NCBI GenBank assembly: GCA_000002435.2
Contig: CM018792.1
From: Giardia intestinalis
Lineage: Eukaryota
Direction: 5' to 3' (one strand)
DNA: 64,000 bases
In this document: piece by piece, positions 24,255-41,602 of the stretch
Numbering within the stretch: position 1 is the first letter of the stretch
How the letters are laid out: each line of letters begins with the position of its first letter
Translations under genes and position numbers: made by a program
Notes under the pieces: generated by a model
Database searches by the model: none
Told to the model about the DNA's origin: nothing
Seen by the model: only the letters and a program-made list of their open reading frames with translations

Positions 24255-24815
24255 TTAAATGCATCGCGCAGTTGCTTGTGATAGACGCCCGGCAGGTGGA
24301 CTCCCAGGCCGCCACTCTTCTTCGGTGCCGCCAGGAACGATCCACCTCTTCGGGTCAGAGCCGAGTATCCCTCCAAGGGCCTCTCCGACCTGCCTGTCGA
24401 AGGATTCATATTGTTCAACTGGTGAGTCCATCTCGACGAGCGGTGCGTAGCCGGCCATCGGAATGGCGTTGATCCTGGCCAGCGTCAGCTTGGCGTGGTG
24501 GGTGATCGGCGCGTCCATCACCAGCTTCAAGCTCTCTGCTGCCTTCTCTATCGCCCTGGGGGCTATGGACTGCTTCTCCTTCGAGACCGGGGCCCCCGGG
24601 AAGGAGACCTCCTGTCCTCTTTGGGTGCTCTTGCACTTGTCAATGTTGACTGTCAAACCATATCGTTTCGCCAGGGCTGTCGCCTCTGTGATTATCCCCG
24701 TCGCGTCGCTGTCGTTGGCATGGAAGCTGAGTGCGTCGTCAGTGTAGGCAATGAGTAGGGTATCTCTCCTTCGGCTCCTGGTGAGCAGGTTCTGTCCCCC
24801 GCAGCACAGAAGCAT
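24255..24815 (-). pseudogene. Reverse transcriptase fragment (domains ~5–7 only; 5'-truncated and frame-disrupted)
   Basis: Motifs AYTDD (YxDD catalytic box), LTVNIDKCK and GAPVSKEK. There is no upstream RT domain 0–4 and no intact long ORF. Confidence 0.55.
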
Positions 24816-25280
24816 GCTCAGGGCCCTGAGGGACCGAGTCCAGGGGTGCAGCGTGGCGCAATTAGAGGAAGGCCTCGATGTAGTTCTCAGGATGAAGGGT
24901 ACACTCGCCTGGCCGAGGCCGTCTGCTGTTGGGGCTCTCGTTATGTCGAGCGAGGCCGCTGTGTTCCGTCAATCTGCATCTCCATGTATGCCATGCGGAC
25001 ACCACCCATGTGCGTTCAGGTGGAGTGCATCTGCTCGGTCTCTAGAAAGGCCAGTGTCTGGGTCTCCAGGGGGCTCAGCAGTATCTGTGAAACACAGCCA
25101 TGATCGTCCACTGATTGTGCTTGTCCTGTCTCATCATTGGGAAGAGGGTAGAACAAGAGTTCTTCCGCTCTCCAGACCTGGTTGACATCTGATCTTCGGG
25201 CTCTGGACGTGGATCTCAGGCGATGTATGGACAGGAGGTACCCGCTTGCCTAAGGCGGTGGCTCGCATGAGGGGATCATT
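24400..25280. repeat. Inverted repeat copy 1 (retroelement-derived); the 24770–25280 core is >99% identical to 29911–30421
   Basis: Track ORFs 24751–25185 (+) and 30006–30434 (−) encode the same 142–144 aa with a single F/L difference. ORFs 24846–25103 (+) and 30088–30345 (−) encode identical 85-aa products. The coordinate mapping is x ↔ 55191−x. A lower-identity (~85%) extension runs 24400–24770 ↔ 30421–30790, for example RQGCRLCDYPRRVAVVGMEAEC versus RQACRLCDCPHRVTVVNIDTEW. Confidence 0.85.
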
Positions 25281-25465
25281 CCAGGAAGATGGAACCGTTA
25301 CATTATATCTACTGCTGTTCAGCTGTGATATTACATTAGAACTTGATTCTATTAATTTCGATAAAGTAACATTAGACACCGAGAAGGAAGCAATGTACAC
25401 AAAAACTGACACACATCCACAAACAGCACGAAAGCGTAGTGAAATGGTCGCTATTCACTCTAGGA

Positions 25466-29208: not shown

Positions 29209-29940
29209 TCATTTCTTTTTACCGCCACGTGAGTTGTTCTTGAAGAAGATTATGTCCCCATCTTCAACAACGTAGTTCTTCCCTTCGGTGCGGACCTTCC
29301 CGGCTGCCTTGGCCTCTGCTTCGGACCCTAACCTCTTGAGATCCTTATAAGTGTAAACCTCTGCACATATAAAATAGTCGCGGAAGTCGCTGTGGATAAC
29401 CGCGCCTGCGTCCGGTGCCTTGGTGTATTTTCTGACCGTCCAGCATCTAACTTCGTCTGCACCACATGTGAAGAAATGACAGAGGTTCAATGCCTTATAT
29501 CCCGTCTTGATGATCTTATCGAGAGCCAACTCCACAACGGAACCGTCAGGGAGCTTGTATTTTGAGGGGAGCTCTCTGAGGTAAGCATTTCTAGCCTCTG
29601 CAGAGCCTAGCTCCAAAAGTGTCGCCTCTAGCTTGGCGCTGTACGGCACTATATGCGCAGTCTCGTTTTTGGCCGTTATCCGTTCCTGTATCTTAGTAAG
29701 GAACTTATTCTTCTTCTTACTATAATCTGCCTCACTCATGTTCAAAAGGTAGACCACAGGCTTGCAACTAAGCAACTGCAGCTCGTTGAGAATCTCCACC
29801 TCACGGGACGACCAGCCCTGGGCAAAGAGGTCCTTCTTTTCCTTGAGTAGTCCCTCTATTTTTAGGTTTACTTTCCGGTTCACCGGGGTAGGGTTGTCAC
29901 CTGCTGCTTGGATGATCCCCTCATGCGAGCCACCGCCTTA
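29209..29940 (-). pseudogene. OLA1: OLA1/YchF (Obg-like ATPase 1) fragment: only the C-terminal coiled-coil and TGS half. The N-terminal G domain is missing, and the frame breaks exactly where inverted-repeat copy 2 begins
   Basis: Track ORF 29209–29883 (224 aa; its listed start is an alternative GTG, and the first ATG is internal at ...LLNMSEADY). It aligns with human OLA1 residues ~170–396: PVVYLLNMSEADYSKKKNKFLTKIQE ≈ [61 protein letters not shown] ≈ [60 protein letters not shown] ≈ [25 protein letters not shown]. Upstream, the frame stays open only to a stop at ~29938–29940, inside the repeat, and there is no GxPNVGKST P-loop. Minus-strand translation of 30790–31146 shows no OLA1 N-terminus. 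Confidence 0.7.
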
Positions 29941-30790
29941 GGCAAGCGGGTACCTCCTGTCCATACATCGCCTGAGATCCACGTCCAGAGCCCGAAGATC
30001 AGATGTCAACCAGGTCTGGAGAGCGGAAGAACTCTTGTTCTACCCTCTTCCCAATGATGAGACAGGACAAGCACAATCAGTGGACGATCATGGCTGTGTT
30101 TCACAGATACTGCTGAGCCCCCTGGAGACCCAGACACTGGCCTTTCTAGAGACCGAGCAGATGCACTCCACCTGAACGCACATGGGTGGTGTCCGCATGG
30201 CATACATGGAGATGCAGATTGACGGAACACAGCGGCCTCGCTCGACATAACGAGAGCCCCAACAGCAGACGGCCTCGGCCAGGCGAGTGTACCCTTCATC
30301 CTGAGAACTACATCGAGGCCTTCCTCTAATTGCGCCACGCTGCACCCCTGGACTCGGTCCCTCAGGGCCCTGAGCATGCTTCTGTGCTGCGGGGGACAGA
30401 GCCTGCTCACCAGGAACTGAAGGAGATACTCCACTCAGTGTCTATATTGACGACAGTGACGCGATGGGGACAGTCACAGAGGCGACAGGCCTGGCGAAGC
30501 AACATGGCTTGACGGTCAGCACTGGGTGTAGGAGCACTGAGGGGCAGGAGGCCTCCTTCCTGGCCGGTCTCAAGGATCCCCCAAGACAACCGAAGGCCGA
30601 AGCCAGTGATGGCACCAATCACTCGCCAAGCTGGCCGGGATGGACCCACACGTGACCCATGTGAATCCCTCGACAGGCAAGTCGGGATCCTTGGGGTGCT
30701 TGGCTGGCAGAGGCGGACTGATCCTGCCTGCACCGAAGAGTGGTGGCGGCTCGCATGAGAAATCACTCAGATAACAGATGAGAGTAAATC
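29911..30790. repeat. Inverted repeat copy 2: a partial retroelement copy holding the TIR-side end plus an RT fragment (YIDD box ~30440–30460, + strand), truncated at ~30790
   Basis: See copy 1. On the + strand ~30407–30655 I read ...SVYIDDSDAMGTVTEATGLAKQHGLTVSTGCRSTEGQEASF..., which parallels ...IAYTDDALSF...TEATALAKRYGLTVNIDKCKSTQRGQEVSF... in copy 1. Confidence 0.8.
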
Positions 30791-33943: not shown

Positions 33944-36426
33944 ATGCTCGGCCTTTTACCACTGGCTCTCCTTGCTTCTATTTGCAAAAGTTCAAGAGAT
34001 GCGTATTACAACAAGTTCGGCGTGGGATGTGAGGGCAAGCAGGAGAATTGCGCCCAGGATAGGTGCTTTTCCATAGGGTCATGGACGTCATGCACCCAAT
34101 GTATCCCTGGGTATGTTCCAATAGATGGAAAATGCCAGAATTACTCCGGAGCTAGCTCCCCTCCATGTACTCCAGATGATCCCAACTCACCGACTCGCTG
34201 CATCAGATGCACATCAACAGAAAATGTCTTTCTCTTTTATGGCAGCTGCTATACAATTACAACAGCACAGAACAGAAATCTGGGCAATTTCTTGTGCTCT
34301 GAAGCATCGAATGGTGTGTGCACTAAATGCTTTGAAAGTAAGCTTGAAAGATATGTCTTTACCAATCCAGACACAAGTGCAGCTGAGAAGTGCATCCTGT
34401 GCTCCGATACGGTCGGGTTCAATGGGTACAAAGGCGCCTCTGGGTGCCTAGACTGCCTTCCTCCCATCACTGATAAAATAGGCATCGCTCTGTGTGTTAA
34501 GTGTCACTATACTACCGAGGATAGACATTTTTATCCGATTGACTATCAATGCCAAGCCAAAGGGCCTCACAATTGCGTCAATGGTTACTGCACGTCATGC
34601 TACAAGACACATTTGTTCTATGAGTATGGATGTTATAGTCGGCACAGTTCGACTGGATTTGCCATATGCGCGGGGGCGAATCAGTACGAGCTAGATAATG
34701 TTACTATCTGCAAAGAGTGCGCAAATGCATCATACGCACCCAGGAACGGAGCATGCATTCTTATCAAGGAAAATCCATCTATTGAAGAGATCGCTTTTAA
34801 GTGCACAAAGGATCCAACTAAAGGACTATGCACGGCCTGCTCTAGCTCCGCGCCATCTTTCCTCTTCTACGGCGGCTGCTATGACGAGGACGCCCGTATT
34901 AGCTCAAAACTCTGTTCAAGAATTGGATCAAATGCCTGTGAACAATGGAATAGTGCTTTCAAATGGATCTTCTCTAAGAATGGCGATAACAATAAAAATG
35001 GATATCTGTGTGGCGATATTGCAAACGGTGGCATCTCTGGCTGTGCTACGTGTAACTATGCCAGCGGTGCTGTCACTTGCACGCGGTGCTCGGCAGGGTG
35101 CCTAGGAGTGGACGGGAAGTCCTGCAGTGAAGGCTGCAGCGGAGACACTCGGGGAGTGTGCACGAAGGTAACAGAGGGGAGCGAGTCAACTGAAGTGTCG
35201 TGTCGATGCGTCTGCAGGCCGACGTTCTACAACAGCTCCGGAACGTGTACACCATGTACGGACTCGTGCGCTGTCTGCAAGGATGGCACACTAACCGGCT
35301 GTCAGCAGTGCAGCCCCGGCAAGATCCTGAGCTTCTCGATCGTCTCTAGCGAGAGTGCAGACTGTGTCGATCAGTGTTCTGTTGGTAGTGAGTGTGCAGA
35401 GTGCGGCATCACCATCGACGGCAGCAGGTACTGCACGCGCTGCAAGGACGCAAGCACGTATCCGTTCAATGGCGTGTGTATTCCAAACACACAAAGAGAC
35501 GCGTACTGTACCAGCACGGCAAATGGTGCTTGCACTGCCTGCTCAGAAGCGGCCTTCCTGATGAACGGGGGCTGCTACACAACGGAGCACTATCCAGGAA
35601 GCACTATCTGTGATAAGCAGTCAAACGGAAAGTGTGAGAAGACCAAGGAGGGGTACGGGATATCGGCCGATGGAAAGCTGCTGGAGTGCGATCCGACATG
35701 TCTGGCGTGCACTGCCCCTGGCCCCGGCCGCTGCACCAGGTGCCCCTTTGGAAAGCTCCTGAAGAAGGTCTCGGGTGCCGCCACCGGGAGCTGCGTCGGC
35801 CTTAATGCCTGTGTAGACGGGTACTATGCAGACGGAGACGCGTGCCTGCCCTGCGCCACTCCGGGGTGCAAGACCTGCGGACATGCCTCTTTCTGCACAG
35901 AGTGCGCGGGGGAGCTCTTCGTGAGCCTGGACGGGCGGTCGTGCCTGGAGGAGTGCACCGGGGACAAGGTGGTGGGAGAGGTGTCCAGCGGCGTGCAGAG
36001 GTGCTGGTGTGAGCGGGGCTTCCTACCGGCACTGGACAGATCCGGGTGTGTGCTCCCAACCGAGTGTCCCCCTGACATGTCGTGGTGTGCTGCCTGCGAT
36101 ACGTCGGGTAAGTGTCTCTCGTGTGCCGCCTCGAATCATAACATCCAGACAGATCAGCGGACGTGTGCAGAGGGGTGCGGCGCCAGGGCCTCATCGAACC
36201 AGGGGCTGTGCATGTGCGAGCTTGACGCGGTCCTCAGAAGGGCATCTGTGTTTCGACCAAGGAGCTGGCCAAGAAGAGAACGGCGGCGATCGCAGGAGGG
36301 ACGGTGGCCGGGGTCATTGTGATTGGGAGCCTGGTTGGCTTCCTTTGCTGGTGGTTTCTCTACCGGGGCAAGCGAATTGGTGCCTCTTTGAGTACTGTGG
36401 GACTCGTTCAATCCAAGTCTATGTAA
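33944..36426 (+). CDS. High-cysteine membrane protein (HCMP/VSP-like, ≥792 aa of ectodomain) with a +1 frameshift at ~36222–36240 that separates the ectodomain from its transmembrane and short cytoplasmic tail
   Basis: Track ORF 33944–36322 has ATG confirmed, a signal peptide [16 protein letters not shown], many CxxC motifs and GGCY/GSCY motifs. The main frame ends ...[41 protein letters not shown]. The +1 frame from ~36226 reads (stop)[66 protein letters not shown] (stop ~36424–36426). That is the family's canonical membrane anchor (…GFLCWWF…) with a non-CRGKA tail, as is typical of HCMPs. Confidence 0.75.
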
Positions 36427-37526
36427 CGCTCCCAAGAACTTGTTGATATACGTGTCTATGATAGGGCTATGCCCATATTGTGCTGAGCACCATTCTCGGT
36501 GTCCTTCTACAGTGAACAACTTGATCTGCGTCCACGCTGTCTTGCTGCGGCACCCCTGGGCATATTCTAGCTAACGGGGCAGAAAAGCGAAGTCTACTCA
36601 CATTATTCGCCTTGCATCTGCAAATCCGTGTGAGATCAGCGAGAAGCGGCTTCAGATACCCTTAGGTACCCTGCTTGCTAGTTGCCATCCCGAGGCACGT
36701 GATCACATCAGATACCGTTGTGAGCTTATCCCTCACACAAGTAATCATTAGCTTGGAGATGCAACCTGGTCCACCTGTACAGGGCCTTTTCCCCTGTGTA
36801 GACGTTACCAGGACAGAACAAGATGCACGAAGAACTCGTTGGCACCTGCTCTGCGCAAGTCTAGCAGCCGACATTATCTGACTTTGGATGGGCTTCTGTA
36901 ATTCTTCCTTTTAGGCATGGACTTGCTTCTGCACCAATGGCATGTGGAATATCCTAGTCTCTCAACTTAAGCACCTTTAGGAAGCAAACGCTATTTAGTA
37001 TTCAAAGGTACATCAGCTTCCCGGGTTGCCGTCGATGTCTAAGGCTATCTCTCTAGGAACTACTGTCAGCCTTGCATGCACTCATTCTAGTGCCCCATTA
37101 ATATAAGAGCTGCATTTCTTAGTCACAAGCATCAACAGCTAGTGAAGAGGTTCAATACTTCGAGAAGGTATTTCCTGGGGATCCATTCTATACTTGCAGT
37201 AATTAAAGCTCCTGCTGCAACCCTACTATTAGTTATCTGTTTTATTGGCTAAACTACACCTTTGCTACTGAACCTAGTGTGTTTCTAGGCATCACCAATG
37301 CTTGCATAGTCAACAGAAAATTGCGCTAAATCATTGGTACGGATGTACTTGTTACTATTTAATGTGCAATCCTTTCGTCTTTGTCTGCAGATAACCCGCT
37401 AATATTGAAGGAACAACAGAATTAAGACATATCTATGAGAAGCGCTGGAGAATATCCAGGCTTCAGATCCAGCAGTTCAGCTTACGCTAGGCTACTCACT
37501 CTATCATCAGTGATGAGATCACTTTG

Positions 37527-39697: not shown

Positions 39698-41602
39698 CTA
39701 TGGTAGGGCAACGGTGAGGTCGTAGGAGCTTCCACTAATAGTAGTGGGTGAAAGAAACGTGGCTCTGTAAATAATCAGTCCGCACACATTGCTTGGCTCT
39801 TCACTAGTGACAGTTACAGGGGCTTCGGGACGCACATCGTCGGGGCTTGCCTTTCCAGTAGGTACCTCAGAGGCGAAGGTTTCATCAGTTTCATGCTCAG
39901 TCTCTCTGAAGGAAGTGATGGCGGGCATAAGAAATAAGTCATCGTCGTCGTCATTAGGAGGATGCTGACATTCATCTTCGGTTGATGTTGGAGGAATCTT
40001 GTGTAAAACATCTGTGCAGGTAGGCATATCCTCATCAAGTGAAGGAGCATCTGGAGTATCACATAGTCCAGACGAATGGACACACTGACGGTAGGTGTGC
40101 ACAACCTCAGAAGGTGCATCGTCATATAACTCGGGCATGGAGACACGATCGATATTGGAGAGTGGTCGTGGGAGACTACAAAGCTCACCTTGGATCTTCT
40201 TTAGAATTGCGTGTATTCCACCATCGGTGCTGGCTTTGCTCTTTCTCGGAAGTGCCCCGGGCGCCGGAGGTTTGGCGTTCCTTGGCATAGAAGACCCGTC
40301 TGTCGGGGCGTGATATTTGGTAAAGAGCGAGCCACTGCCACTACGCTGTGATGGAGCGGAGCGAGTTGAATAAACCTCGTATTGATCGGTCTCTTCCCTG
40401 TGCTGGACAGGGACTACCACAATCTCCTTTCCCTGATGGAGATACTCGTCGGCTACCTTTCTAAACTCTGTAATACGCTGTCCTTCTTTGATTAATAGCT
40501 GCCTTATCTCGTCACTTGACACAGGCATGTCAGGCGCCCCAAATGCTGTCTCCAGAAATTGTGAGAGCATTTCAGGAAGAGAACTGAAGTCCATAGGCTT
40601 CAGAGTCGGTATTGGTAATCCCAAGAGTAAAAATAGGGAAACATCTGCAGAGGTAAATATCCCCGTTTGGTCCGATCTTTGCTCTTTCGGGGCAGAATCA
40701 TCAACATTTGAGGTTATCCAAACACCGTACTCCACTGACCTTTTATAAAAGGCGGCCACGGCATCGCTTACAGTGTCAATACCCACAAATTCACCTTTGT
40801 CAGGGTCATCGAAAAATCCAATGAGGAGCATCAGTTTAATAACAACCTCCTCTGTGAAGATGTTTTCTGTTAAAAGACGTGCATACCATGATTCTGTGCA
40901 GTTTTGACTAATTGCTTCAGCTGAAAACAGAGGAAGATTCAGGGGCAGCTTGCATTGAGCTCTTGTTCTCTCTAAGGCAAAAGTTACTCTTGATGTCAAC
41001 GATCTAATGCTGAGAACGAGTTCTGCAATACGTTTTCTTGAGCTAGTACTCGCTTTTGTGTGGTTCTCATTTAGCATCATCAAGAAGCTGCGAATAGCTG
41101 CTTGCCTTTGGTGGGTAAGATCTACATATTCTTTTTTAAGACCAAGAATAACTCGCAAGCGGCACCCATAGATCTTTTGCGCGGCAGTGTCTCCTTTTAG
41201 TACATTCCATGCATACCGCCGCTCGCCCTCAGACAGATATAAGGCCTCCCATATTCGAGAAATCGTTGCCTTCTCGTCTCCACTGCGTATTTTTAGCCGT
41301 CCAGATGCTCCTGGTGAAGTGGTAGGGGTTCCAGCACTTGAGGGCAAAGAGTCCCTCAAGCTTAGGCTTGGCTTCCGTATATCTACGGACTTGCTCTCTG
41401 AAATACTGTGTCCTAGTGAGCGCTGCGTCAGGGGTGATTGGCGCTGATAGATACTCCTTTCCACAAGGAGATTTTTTCTGCGATAGGGCGTGGCATCCGA
41501 GTGCCTTCTAGATGTTGCAGCAGAAGCTGTCGAGGCGGAGACCCCTAGACTGGCGTCCGAGGATGCAGTCAGCAGACGCCCTGAAAAGGCCGAGGGCTCC
41601 AT
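39698..41602 (-). CDS. Hypothetical protein (634 aa; Ser/Thr/Pro-rich N-terminus, acidic DDDDD stretch near the C-terminus)
   Basis: Track ORF with ATG confirmed (MEPSAF...). No recognised domain. Confidence 0.5.
   Translation of the reverse strand: MEPSAFSGRLLTASSDASLGVSASTASAATSRRHSDATPYRRKNLLVERSIYQRQSPLTQRSLGHSISESKSVDIRKPSLSLRDSLPSSAGTPTTSPGASGRLKIRSGDEKATISRIWEALYLSEGERRYAWNVLKGDTAAQKIYGCRLRVILGLKKEYVDLTHQRQAAIRSFLMMLNENHTKASTSSRKRIAELVLSIRSLTSRVTFALERTRAQCKLPLNLPLFSAEAISQNCTESWYARLLTENIFTEEVVIKLMLLIGFFDDPDKGEFVGIDTVSDAVAAFYKRSVEYGVWITSNVDDSAPKEQRSDQTGIFTSADVSLFLLLGLPIPTLKPMDFSSLPEMLSQFLETAFGAPDMPVSSDEIRQLLIKEGQRITEFRKVADEYLHQGKEIVVVPVQHREETDQYEVYSTRSAPSQRSGSGSLFTKYHAPTDGSSMPRNAKPPAPGALPRKSKASTDGGIHAILKKIQGELCSLPRPLSNIDRVSMPELYDDAPSEVVHTYRQCVHSSGLCDTPDAPSLDEDMPTCTDVLHKIPPTSTEDECQHPPNDDDDDLFLMPAITSFRETEHETDETFASEVPTGKASPDDVRPEAPVTVTSEEPSNVCGLIIYRATFLSPTTISGSSYDLTVALP

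Follow-up and report, generated by a model that had tools for sequence, protein, structure and literature searches.

Why does a cysteine-rich protein gene of Giardia intestinalis WB close with a nonsense tail while the DNA around its 3' end still encodes the membrane anchor of its family, in another frame? The gene in question, GL50803_00115202, occupies positions 33944..36322 on the plus strand of the 64,000-nucleotide (nt) stretch of contig CM018792.1 (assembly GCA_000002435.2) that was analysed here and is called the window below. Exact-sequence look-up identified this open reading frame (ORF) as GL50803_00115202 / XP_001708391.1, 'High cysteine protein' (HCP), and returned one identical 792-aa sequence under KAE8303503.1, XP_001708391.1 and UniProt A8BAG1 (ATCC 50803, WB clone C6). 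The record that carries the KAE8303503.1 gene is 2,761,001 bp long. On NC_051859.1 the gene is listed with 2379 nt and 792 aa (S1 table of 10.1101/2022.03.07.483299), and under the identifier GL50803_115202 it has been placed on chromosome 4 (Peirasmaki et al.). The explanation that we favour, with a probability of about 0.6 for the reading as a whole, is a genuine 1-nt deletion in a gene of high-cysteine membrane protein (HCMP) Group 4, which would now be an incipient pseudogene. That the deletion at 36236/36237 is real, taken by itself, is highly probable.

The 792-aa product looks like a member of the VSP/HCMP superfamily up to its last residues. It has a signal peptide (the N-terminus reaches a Kyte-Doolittle value of 2.34 in a 12-residue window) and a cysteine content of 11.7% with 24 CXXC motifs. 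It matches Pfam VSP PF03302 with 116.9 bits (E = 1.3e-33), at profile positions 73-281 only. By these features the gene belongs to the superfamily, and a protein search found its homologues among the HCMP Group 4 proteins of WB, DH and P15, at 62-87% identity over the full length. The annotated product lacks the C-terminal transmembrane segment that Group 4 members carry in frame, with a maximum Kyte-Doolittle value of 1.2 for residues 31-792. Nor does it contain the cytoplasmic tail other than CRGKA that HCMPs have, which is encoded out of frame only. Cysteine-rich, with a signal peptide and no transmembrane segment, the product as annotated fits the structural definition of an HCP or secretory Cys-rich protein (SCRP). 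The features of the gene and its 3' end are as follows.

33944..36322, plus strand: annotated coding sequence of GL50803_00115202, 792 codons and then the TGA stop at 36320-36322.
33944..33997, plus strand: signal peptide of 18 residues, from the S1 table of 10.1101/2022.03.07.483299 and the hydrophobic N-terminus.
33998..36235, plus strand: Cys-rich ectodomain with homology to HCMP Group 4, in frame to ...CMCELDAVL; Leu764 is the CTC at 36233-36235.
36223..36225, plus strand: TGA in the anchor frame, the upstream limit of that open frame, from three-frame translation and a stop-codon check.
36236..36237, plus strand: site of the 1-nt deletion; WB has CTCA-GAAGG where DH has CTCACGAAGG or CTCACGAAAGG, the C of a Thr ACG codon being missing.
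36236..36322, plus strand: out-of-frame tail and TGA stop; 28 codons with 10 Arg, 0 Cys and no hydrophobic stretch.
36238..36282, plus strand: membrane-proximal stalk of 15 residues in the -1 frame, aligning with the stalks of intact relatives, including TKGVCVPAKELARKRT.
36283..36360, plus strand: transmembrane segment of 26 residues in the -1 frame, from Kyte-Doolittle values and Pfam VSP; identical to DH P0055 and P0046.
36361..36426, plus strand: HCMP-type cytoplasmic tail (21 residues) and TAA in the -1 frame; identical in DH P0055 and P0046, and in P0050 bar one residue.
36511..36517, plus strand: AGTGAAC, a match to the Giardia polyadenylation motif AGTRAAY and the sole one in 36301-36600; placed beyond the ancestral stop, it may be the poly(A) signal.

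The anchor is thus encoded in the DNA and absent from the protein. Codon starts of the 792-aa ORF fall at 2 mod 3 and those of the anchor at 1 mod 3, so the anchor is in the -1 (= +2) frame. This frame is open from just past the TGA at 36223-36225 to the TAA at 36424-36426. The 66-aa peptide that it encodes matches on its own the C-terminal end of PF03302, at positions 365-396 of 397 (38.7 bits, E = 7e-10; the curated cut-off is 31.4 bits). Past the signal peptide, just one 19-residue window is strongly hydrophobic, and this peptide contains it (Kyte-Doolittle 2.28, against the maximum of 1.2 given above). Compared with the syntenic DH orthologue described below, the anchor peptide differs at 2 of 62 residues, both ahead of the transmembrane segment. 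A chance open hydrophobic frame was considered and is ruled out by the Pfam VSP match and by the near-identity to the DH anchor. For the 28-residue Arg-rich tail of the annotated product, no counterpart was found in any member of the C-terminal family alignment. A search with the last 127 residues of the product, tail included, gave three partial matches, none of which bears the tail.

The lesion was located by alignment. Among the 20 members of the C-terminal family alignment, the 792-aa product tracks the family to ...CMCELDAVL, after which most other members continue with T-K/R-G/D-x-C-V, the stalk, the transmembrane segment and the tail. The DNA was aligned with that of three in-frame relatives: DH P0046 (contig L017), an ENA isolate (L018) and DH P0055 (contig L019). 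These alignments place a single 1-nt gap in WB after 36236 relative to all three. In a longer context, WB CTCA-GAAGGGC stands against CTCACGAAGGAC and CTCACGAAAGGC of the two DH genes. The affected Thr ACG codon sits three codons ahead of the last ectodomain cysteine. Insertion of one C at the site yields an HCMP of 827 aa with a normal anchor, the length of the WB paralogue P0047. All other gaps between WB and the syntenic DH gene measure 3, 6, 3, 3 and 3 nt, and the 1-nt gap at 36236 alone breaks the frame.

A preliminary description of the stretch, made from the sequence alone, had reported a Cys-rich ORF of 792 aa with a nonsense tail. It had also reported an intact anchor in the +1 frame that opens just after a TGA at about 36222, and a switch of frame within about 20 nt. 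The ORF and its tail of 28 residues were as described, the TGA is at 36223-36225, and DNA alignment narrowed the switch to A36236/G36237. The anchor is indeed intact, as the Pfam match and the identity with DH indicate, but the frame had been misassigned: with one nucleotide missing it is -1 (+2), not +1. Comparison with orthologous HCMPs had been proposed there as a check. It was carried out here, and the relatives read in frame where WB is one C short. The central proposal, an HCMP-type ectodomain uncoupled from its own anchor by a single frameshift, agrees with both the family and the DH alignments.

Is there an intact gene at the same place in another genome? The gene order of DH contig AHGT01000010.1 (L019) is that of the window: a 617-aa VSP on the minus strand, a 67-aa ORF, an HCMP, a 696-aa gene (719 aa in WB) and a 634-aa gene on the minus strand. 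The window aligns with this contig from 29936 to 40425, and the flanks on both sides of the HCP gene are 96-99% identical. The HCMP on this contig, P0055 (ESU38735.1, 823 aa), is intact and anchored. Because of the shared gene order and the 96-99% identical flanks, we regard P0055 as the positional orthologue of GL50803_00115202. DH P0046 (L017) had been the first candidate and was rejected, as it shows no downstream synteny. The WB gene accordingly has one mark of a young (unitary) pseudogene, a disabling lesion set against an intact orthologue at the same locus, with DH intact and the lone 1-nt gap breaking the frame. The intact syntenic copy in DH (assemblage A2) makes it probable that WB acquired the deletion once its lineage had separated from that of DH.

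Inside the gene, the interval from 34700 to 35100 matches the syntenic DH gene at no more than 49-69% identity. Most of this interval agrees at 94-100% with the non-syntenic DH paralogue P0046, the value for 34800-34899 being 86%. The mosaic indicates that genes of HCMP Group 4 have undergone conversion or have recombined with one another.

Could the missing base be an assembly or sequencing indel, the true gene being an ordinary in-frame HCMP of 827 aa? Long reads err most often by single-base indels. Some genes had been truncated through homopolymer errors of PacBio, which was the reason for correction in the 2020 assembly (Xu et al.). That assembly was built de novo from PacBio reads and Quiver-polished, and its indels were corrected with 100x Illumina data at sites covered by 10 or more reads of which at least 50% supported the change (Xu et al.). 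The context of the deletion, CTCA/GAAGGG, contains no homopolymer run. The 792-aa product is the same in the older RefSeq/UniProt and the 2020 GenBank accessions, and RefSeq for the new chromosome NC_051859.1 keeps protein version.1, where changed proteins carry.2.

The FKBP gene and the 719-aa gene led to Logan contigs from many independent runs that match the window with 100% identity but end at 36315 or 36518 and miss 36236. These ends are the points at which the sequence becomes common to paralogues. Exact-product look-ups with the 792-aa ORF, the neighbouring VSP (with two starts), P0001 and the 40-aa ATG-initiated anchor ORF returned no contig. Metagenome contigs were scanned for the junction, which in reads would appear as CTCAGAAGG in the deletion form and as CTCACGAAGG with the extra C, and neither form was matched. 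These look-ups yielded no independent short-read contig that spans the junction, which leaves some room for an error of assembly. Because the same 792-aa product stands in the older and the 2020 accessions, because indels were corrected with Illumina reads and because the site is not a homopolymer, an assembly error nevertheless appears very unlikely. The preliminary description had kept an assembly indel as an alternative, and on the shared accessions and the PacBio plus 100x Illumina assembly we set it aside.

Giardia trophozoites contain two diploid nuclei, and allelic heterozygosity in WB is very low, below 0.01%. The tetraploid cell would allow the reference to represent a frameshifted allele, with at least one of the four copies intact and anchored. 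Under a rule of 50% read support, such a minority allele would be invisible in the consensus. The very low heterozygosity of WB speaks against a hidden copy of this kind, no result of the present analysis indicates a second allele, and we consider the idea improbable.

Another way to keep the anchor would be recoding, by which a -1 ribosomal frameshift or transcriptional slippage near 36236 would restore it in a fraction of the product and so yield both a secreted and a membrane form. The anchor frame is undamaged, and after the overlap it is fully open for 66 codons. Giardia ribosomes are capable of the shift, as they perform -1 programmed frameshifting on Giardia lamblia virus RNA; to our knowledge, none has been described for a Giardia gene. 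The viral gag-pol arrangement resembles the present one in its overlapping frames and in having the downstream part in the -1 frame. Unlike gag-pol, however, GL50803_00115202 has no slippery heptamer, no stimulatory structure and no conserved arrangement of the frames. No heptamer of the form X XXY YYZ was found in 36200-36322 in any frame. The RNA of 36226-36345 folds no better than shuffled sequence (minimum free energy -42.3 kcal/mol against a shuffle mean of -43.5; z = +0.29). Most relatives in WB, DH and P15, the syntenic orthologue among them, have a single frame across the junction, and the exceptions are truncated elsewhere, so the two-frame arrangement is not conserved. Programmed -1 frameshifting was therefore rejected for lack of a heptamer, of a downstream structure and of relatives that share the arrangement; transcriptional slippage was rejected because there is no homopolymer at 36236. 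The intactness of the anchor frame can be explained by the youth of the lesion instead, and recoding of either kind is extremely unlikely.

How young the lesion may be can be judged from the anchor remnant. Over 36238-36426, 6 of its 189 nt are not the same as in the DH orthologue, and it contains no stop and no indel. Of the six differences, four are synonymous and two non-synonymous, too few for a ratio of non-synonymous to synonymous change (dN/dS) and not assignable to a lineage. At the protein level, the orthologue has the same transmembrane segment and cytoplasmic tail. The non-coding flank downstream is 97.8% identical over 1074 nt, about the same divergence as in the remnant. Because the remnant stands at background divergence and no second lesion lies upstream, the deletion would be recent; a remnant that has not decayed beyond background fits this. 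Gene conversion could also have refreshed the remnant.

The favoured reading involves a lesion in the DNA and not a decoding device: in WB the C of the Thr ACG codon would have been lost. As the sequence reads, translation leaves the family frame after Leu764, and 28 basic nonsense codons follow up to the stop at 36320. The product so encoded retains the signal peptide and the whole Cys-rich ectodomain, and it has neither a transmembrane segment nor a cytoplasmic tail. The youth of the lesion would explain why the DNA of the anchor is still undamaged in the -1 frame. The family of the gene evolves by birth and death, with heavy recombination and regular loss of C-termini. Most likely the gene is an incipient pseudogene with low-level transcription, and any product would be soluble, released and not specifically selected for.

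The alternative that deserves most attention accepts the same deletion and gives it a use. The deletion would have made a soluble, released Cys-rich protein of the HCP/SCRP kind that is kept for an extracellular role like that of the tenascin-like proteins. The signal peptide and a complete, uninterrupted ectodomain have been kept, and the decision tree of 10.1101/2022.03.07.483299 files the gene under 'secretory Cys-rich protein'. Several observations weigh against a mere pseudogene. The 764 codons of the ectodomain hold no second disabling mutation, which fits a functional soluble protein equally well. On co-culture with intestinal cells, GL50803_115202 was slightly up, with log fold changes (logFC) of 0.37 and 0.58 at a log counts per million (logCPM) of 7.53 (Peirasmaki et al.). 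The protein also appears in the list of proteins found only in the WB secretome and in the list of secretome proteins with signal peptides (Ma'ayeh et al. 2017, S3 and S7 tables, PMC5739509), from which it follows that some product may be made and released.

The secretome listing is weak evidence for a dedicated soluble protein, because anchored VSPs and HCMPs are also in the secretome and because paralogues share peptides with this product. The same WB secretome holds 23 VSPs and 12 HCMPs, classes that are defined by a C-terminal membrane anchor (PMC5739509). Paralogues of the same 90%-identity cluster, such as P0047, have many peptides in common with the 792-aa product, and the peptides behind the listing are possibly theirs. 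GL50803_115202 is absent from the part of the secretome peptide table S1 (PMC5739509) that was examined. A re-analysis of eight proteomic datasets did not include GL50803_00115202 among the Cys-rich proteins with peptide evidence (10.1101/2022.03.07.483299), and GL50803_115202 does not occur in the Dubourg et al. 2018 supplements. Since DH has an anchored gene at the syntenic position, a soluble form would be specific to the strain or sub-assemblage at most. The tail of 28 aa is noise from the shifted frame and matches nothing elsewhere. Taking both sides together, a functional secreted protein is possible but unlikely. We regard as doubtful, by a shade more, the broader proposal that single-base loss of the anchor is a working route from membrane HCMPs to soluble proteins, with the WB GL50803_115202 product as a functional secreted factor. 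Were the soluble product functional, the gene would be a small example of how a strain-specific secreted factor is created.

Transcription of the gene is documented at a low level. In clonal WB cultures the sense transcript reached 11-20 transcripts per million (TPM; S9 table, 10.1101/2022.03.07.483299). In the same table, antisense values of 42-69 TPM exceed the sense values in all seven samples, each of the two being normalised separately.

The case itself is already annotated and published. Rodriguez-Walker et al. (10.1101/2022.03.07.483299, Table 3 and S1 table) name GL50803_00115202 as an example of an HCP whose transmembrane domain and tail are in another frame, and they hold that most former HCPs are probably pseudogenes. 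Theirs is the same gene and the same observation, with no difference in substance from ours; a literature search by accession numbers found no paper. The secreted protein and the fresh pseudogene, which the preliminary description had offered as alternatives, are likewise two readings already in the literature. What is added here is the exact lesion (the C of Thr ACG at 36236/36237), its standing as the sole frame-breaking difference, the intact syntenic DH orthologue and the finding of no recoding signal.

GL50803_00115202 shares the architecture of signal peptide and ectodomain with the intact HCMP Group 4 proteins (DH ESU38735.1 = P0055, 823 aa; WB XP_001706611.1 = P0047, 827 aa). At the DNA level it also shares the CMCELDAVL(T)KG.CV stalk, the transmembrane segment and the YRGKRIGAS... 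tail. In P0055 and P0047 the anchor is in frame, whereas in GL50803_00115202 it is displaced by one missing nucleotide and absent from the product. The Giardia SCRPs (tenascin-like) likewise have a signal peptide, a Cys-rich EGF-like body, no transmembrane segment and reports from secretomes. Proteomic support exists, however, for 14 of the 16 SCRPs (10.1101/2022.03.07.483299), and GL50803_00115202, a very recently de-anchored HCMP, is one of the two without it.

Other family members have lost the end of the protein as well. GL50803_00114617 and GL50803_00114470 are truncated by a Trp-to-stop change at the transmembrane segment (10.1101/2022.03.07.483299). WB P0001 (XP_001704473.1) ends within the transmembrane segment, its last residues being ...GFLCW. 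In WB P0012 a frameshift follows CERGF, and DH P0003 and P0013 are truncated before the anchor. Judged from these sequences, members of HCMP Group 4 have lost the anchor repeatedly. GL50803_00114617, GL50803_00114470 and P0001, as truncated CRMPs/HCMPs, resemble the present gene in having a single point lesion with coding sequence that continues past the stop. They differ from it in that theirs is a nonsense change in or just after the transmembrane segment, whereas the frameshift of GL50803_00115202 lies upstream and the entire anchor is gone.

The locus offers a single-nucleotide view of how a member of the HCMP/VSP family is lost: one base removes the anchor, while 764 ectodomain codons and the remnant remain intact. 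It lends support to the published opinion that 'High cysteine proteins' are for the most part HCMPs which were disabled recently, and it has little significance beyond annotation. Users of the WB reference should not count GL50803_00115202 as a membrane protein. Before they credit a proteomic or RNA-seq signal to it, they need peptides or reads that none of the close paralogues in its 90%-identity cluster shares.

Several other features of the window were recorded. In the Logan contigs of some runs (L010-L016 versus L007-L009), the gene beside the 719-aa gene is called with 549 aa and not 588 aa. The contigs with the 549-aa call (window about 39698-41602, minus strand) extend 203 nt further toward the HCP gene. 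Giardia lines may be polymorphic here, or the gene may have been called differently.

A 520-nt inverted repeat (24765-25284 and 29907-30426, 99% complementary), with a weaker pair (93 nt, 80%) just outside, encloses about 4.6 kb with ankyrin-repeat (protein 21.1-like) ORFs. The sequence of its inner arm recurs on DH contig L019. An ORF fragment at 24255-24815 (minus strand) bears the reverse-transcriptase motif AYTDDAL and scores 25.2 bits with Pfam RVT_1, below the cut-off of 29.6. It is probably a retrotransposon remnant that adjoins the inverted repeat and the VSP/HCMP cluster. The ORF at 29209-29883 (minus strand), which abuts the repeat arm at 29907, comprises the C-terminal part only of a YchF/OLA1-type GTPase (Pfam YchF-GTPase_C, E = 1.2e-35). 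No N-terminal GTPase domain was found upstream of it in any frame, and it is probably a truncated gene copy. At the start of the window a stop-free frame of 7344 codons (3-22034, minus strand) runs off the edge and is part of a giant gene, which accounts for the absence of listed ORFs in the first 22 kb and for the steady positive GC skew there.

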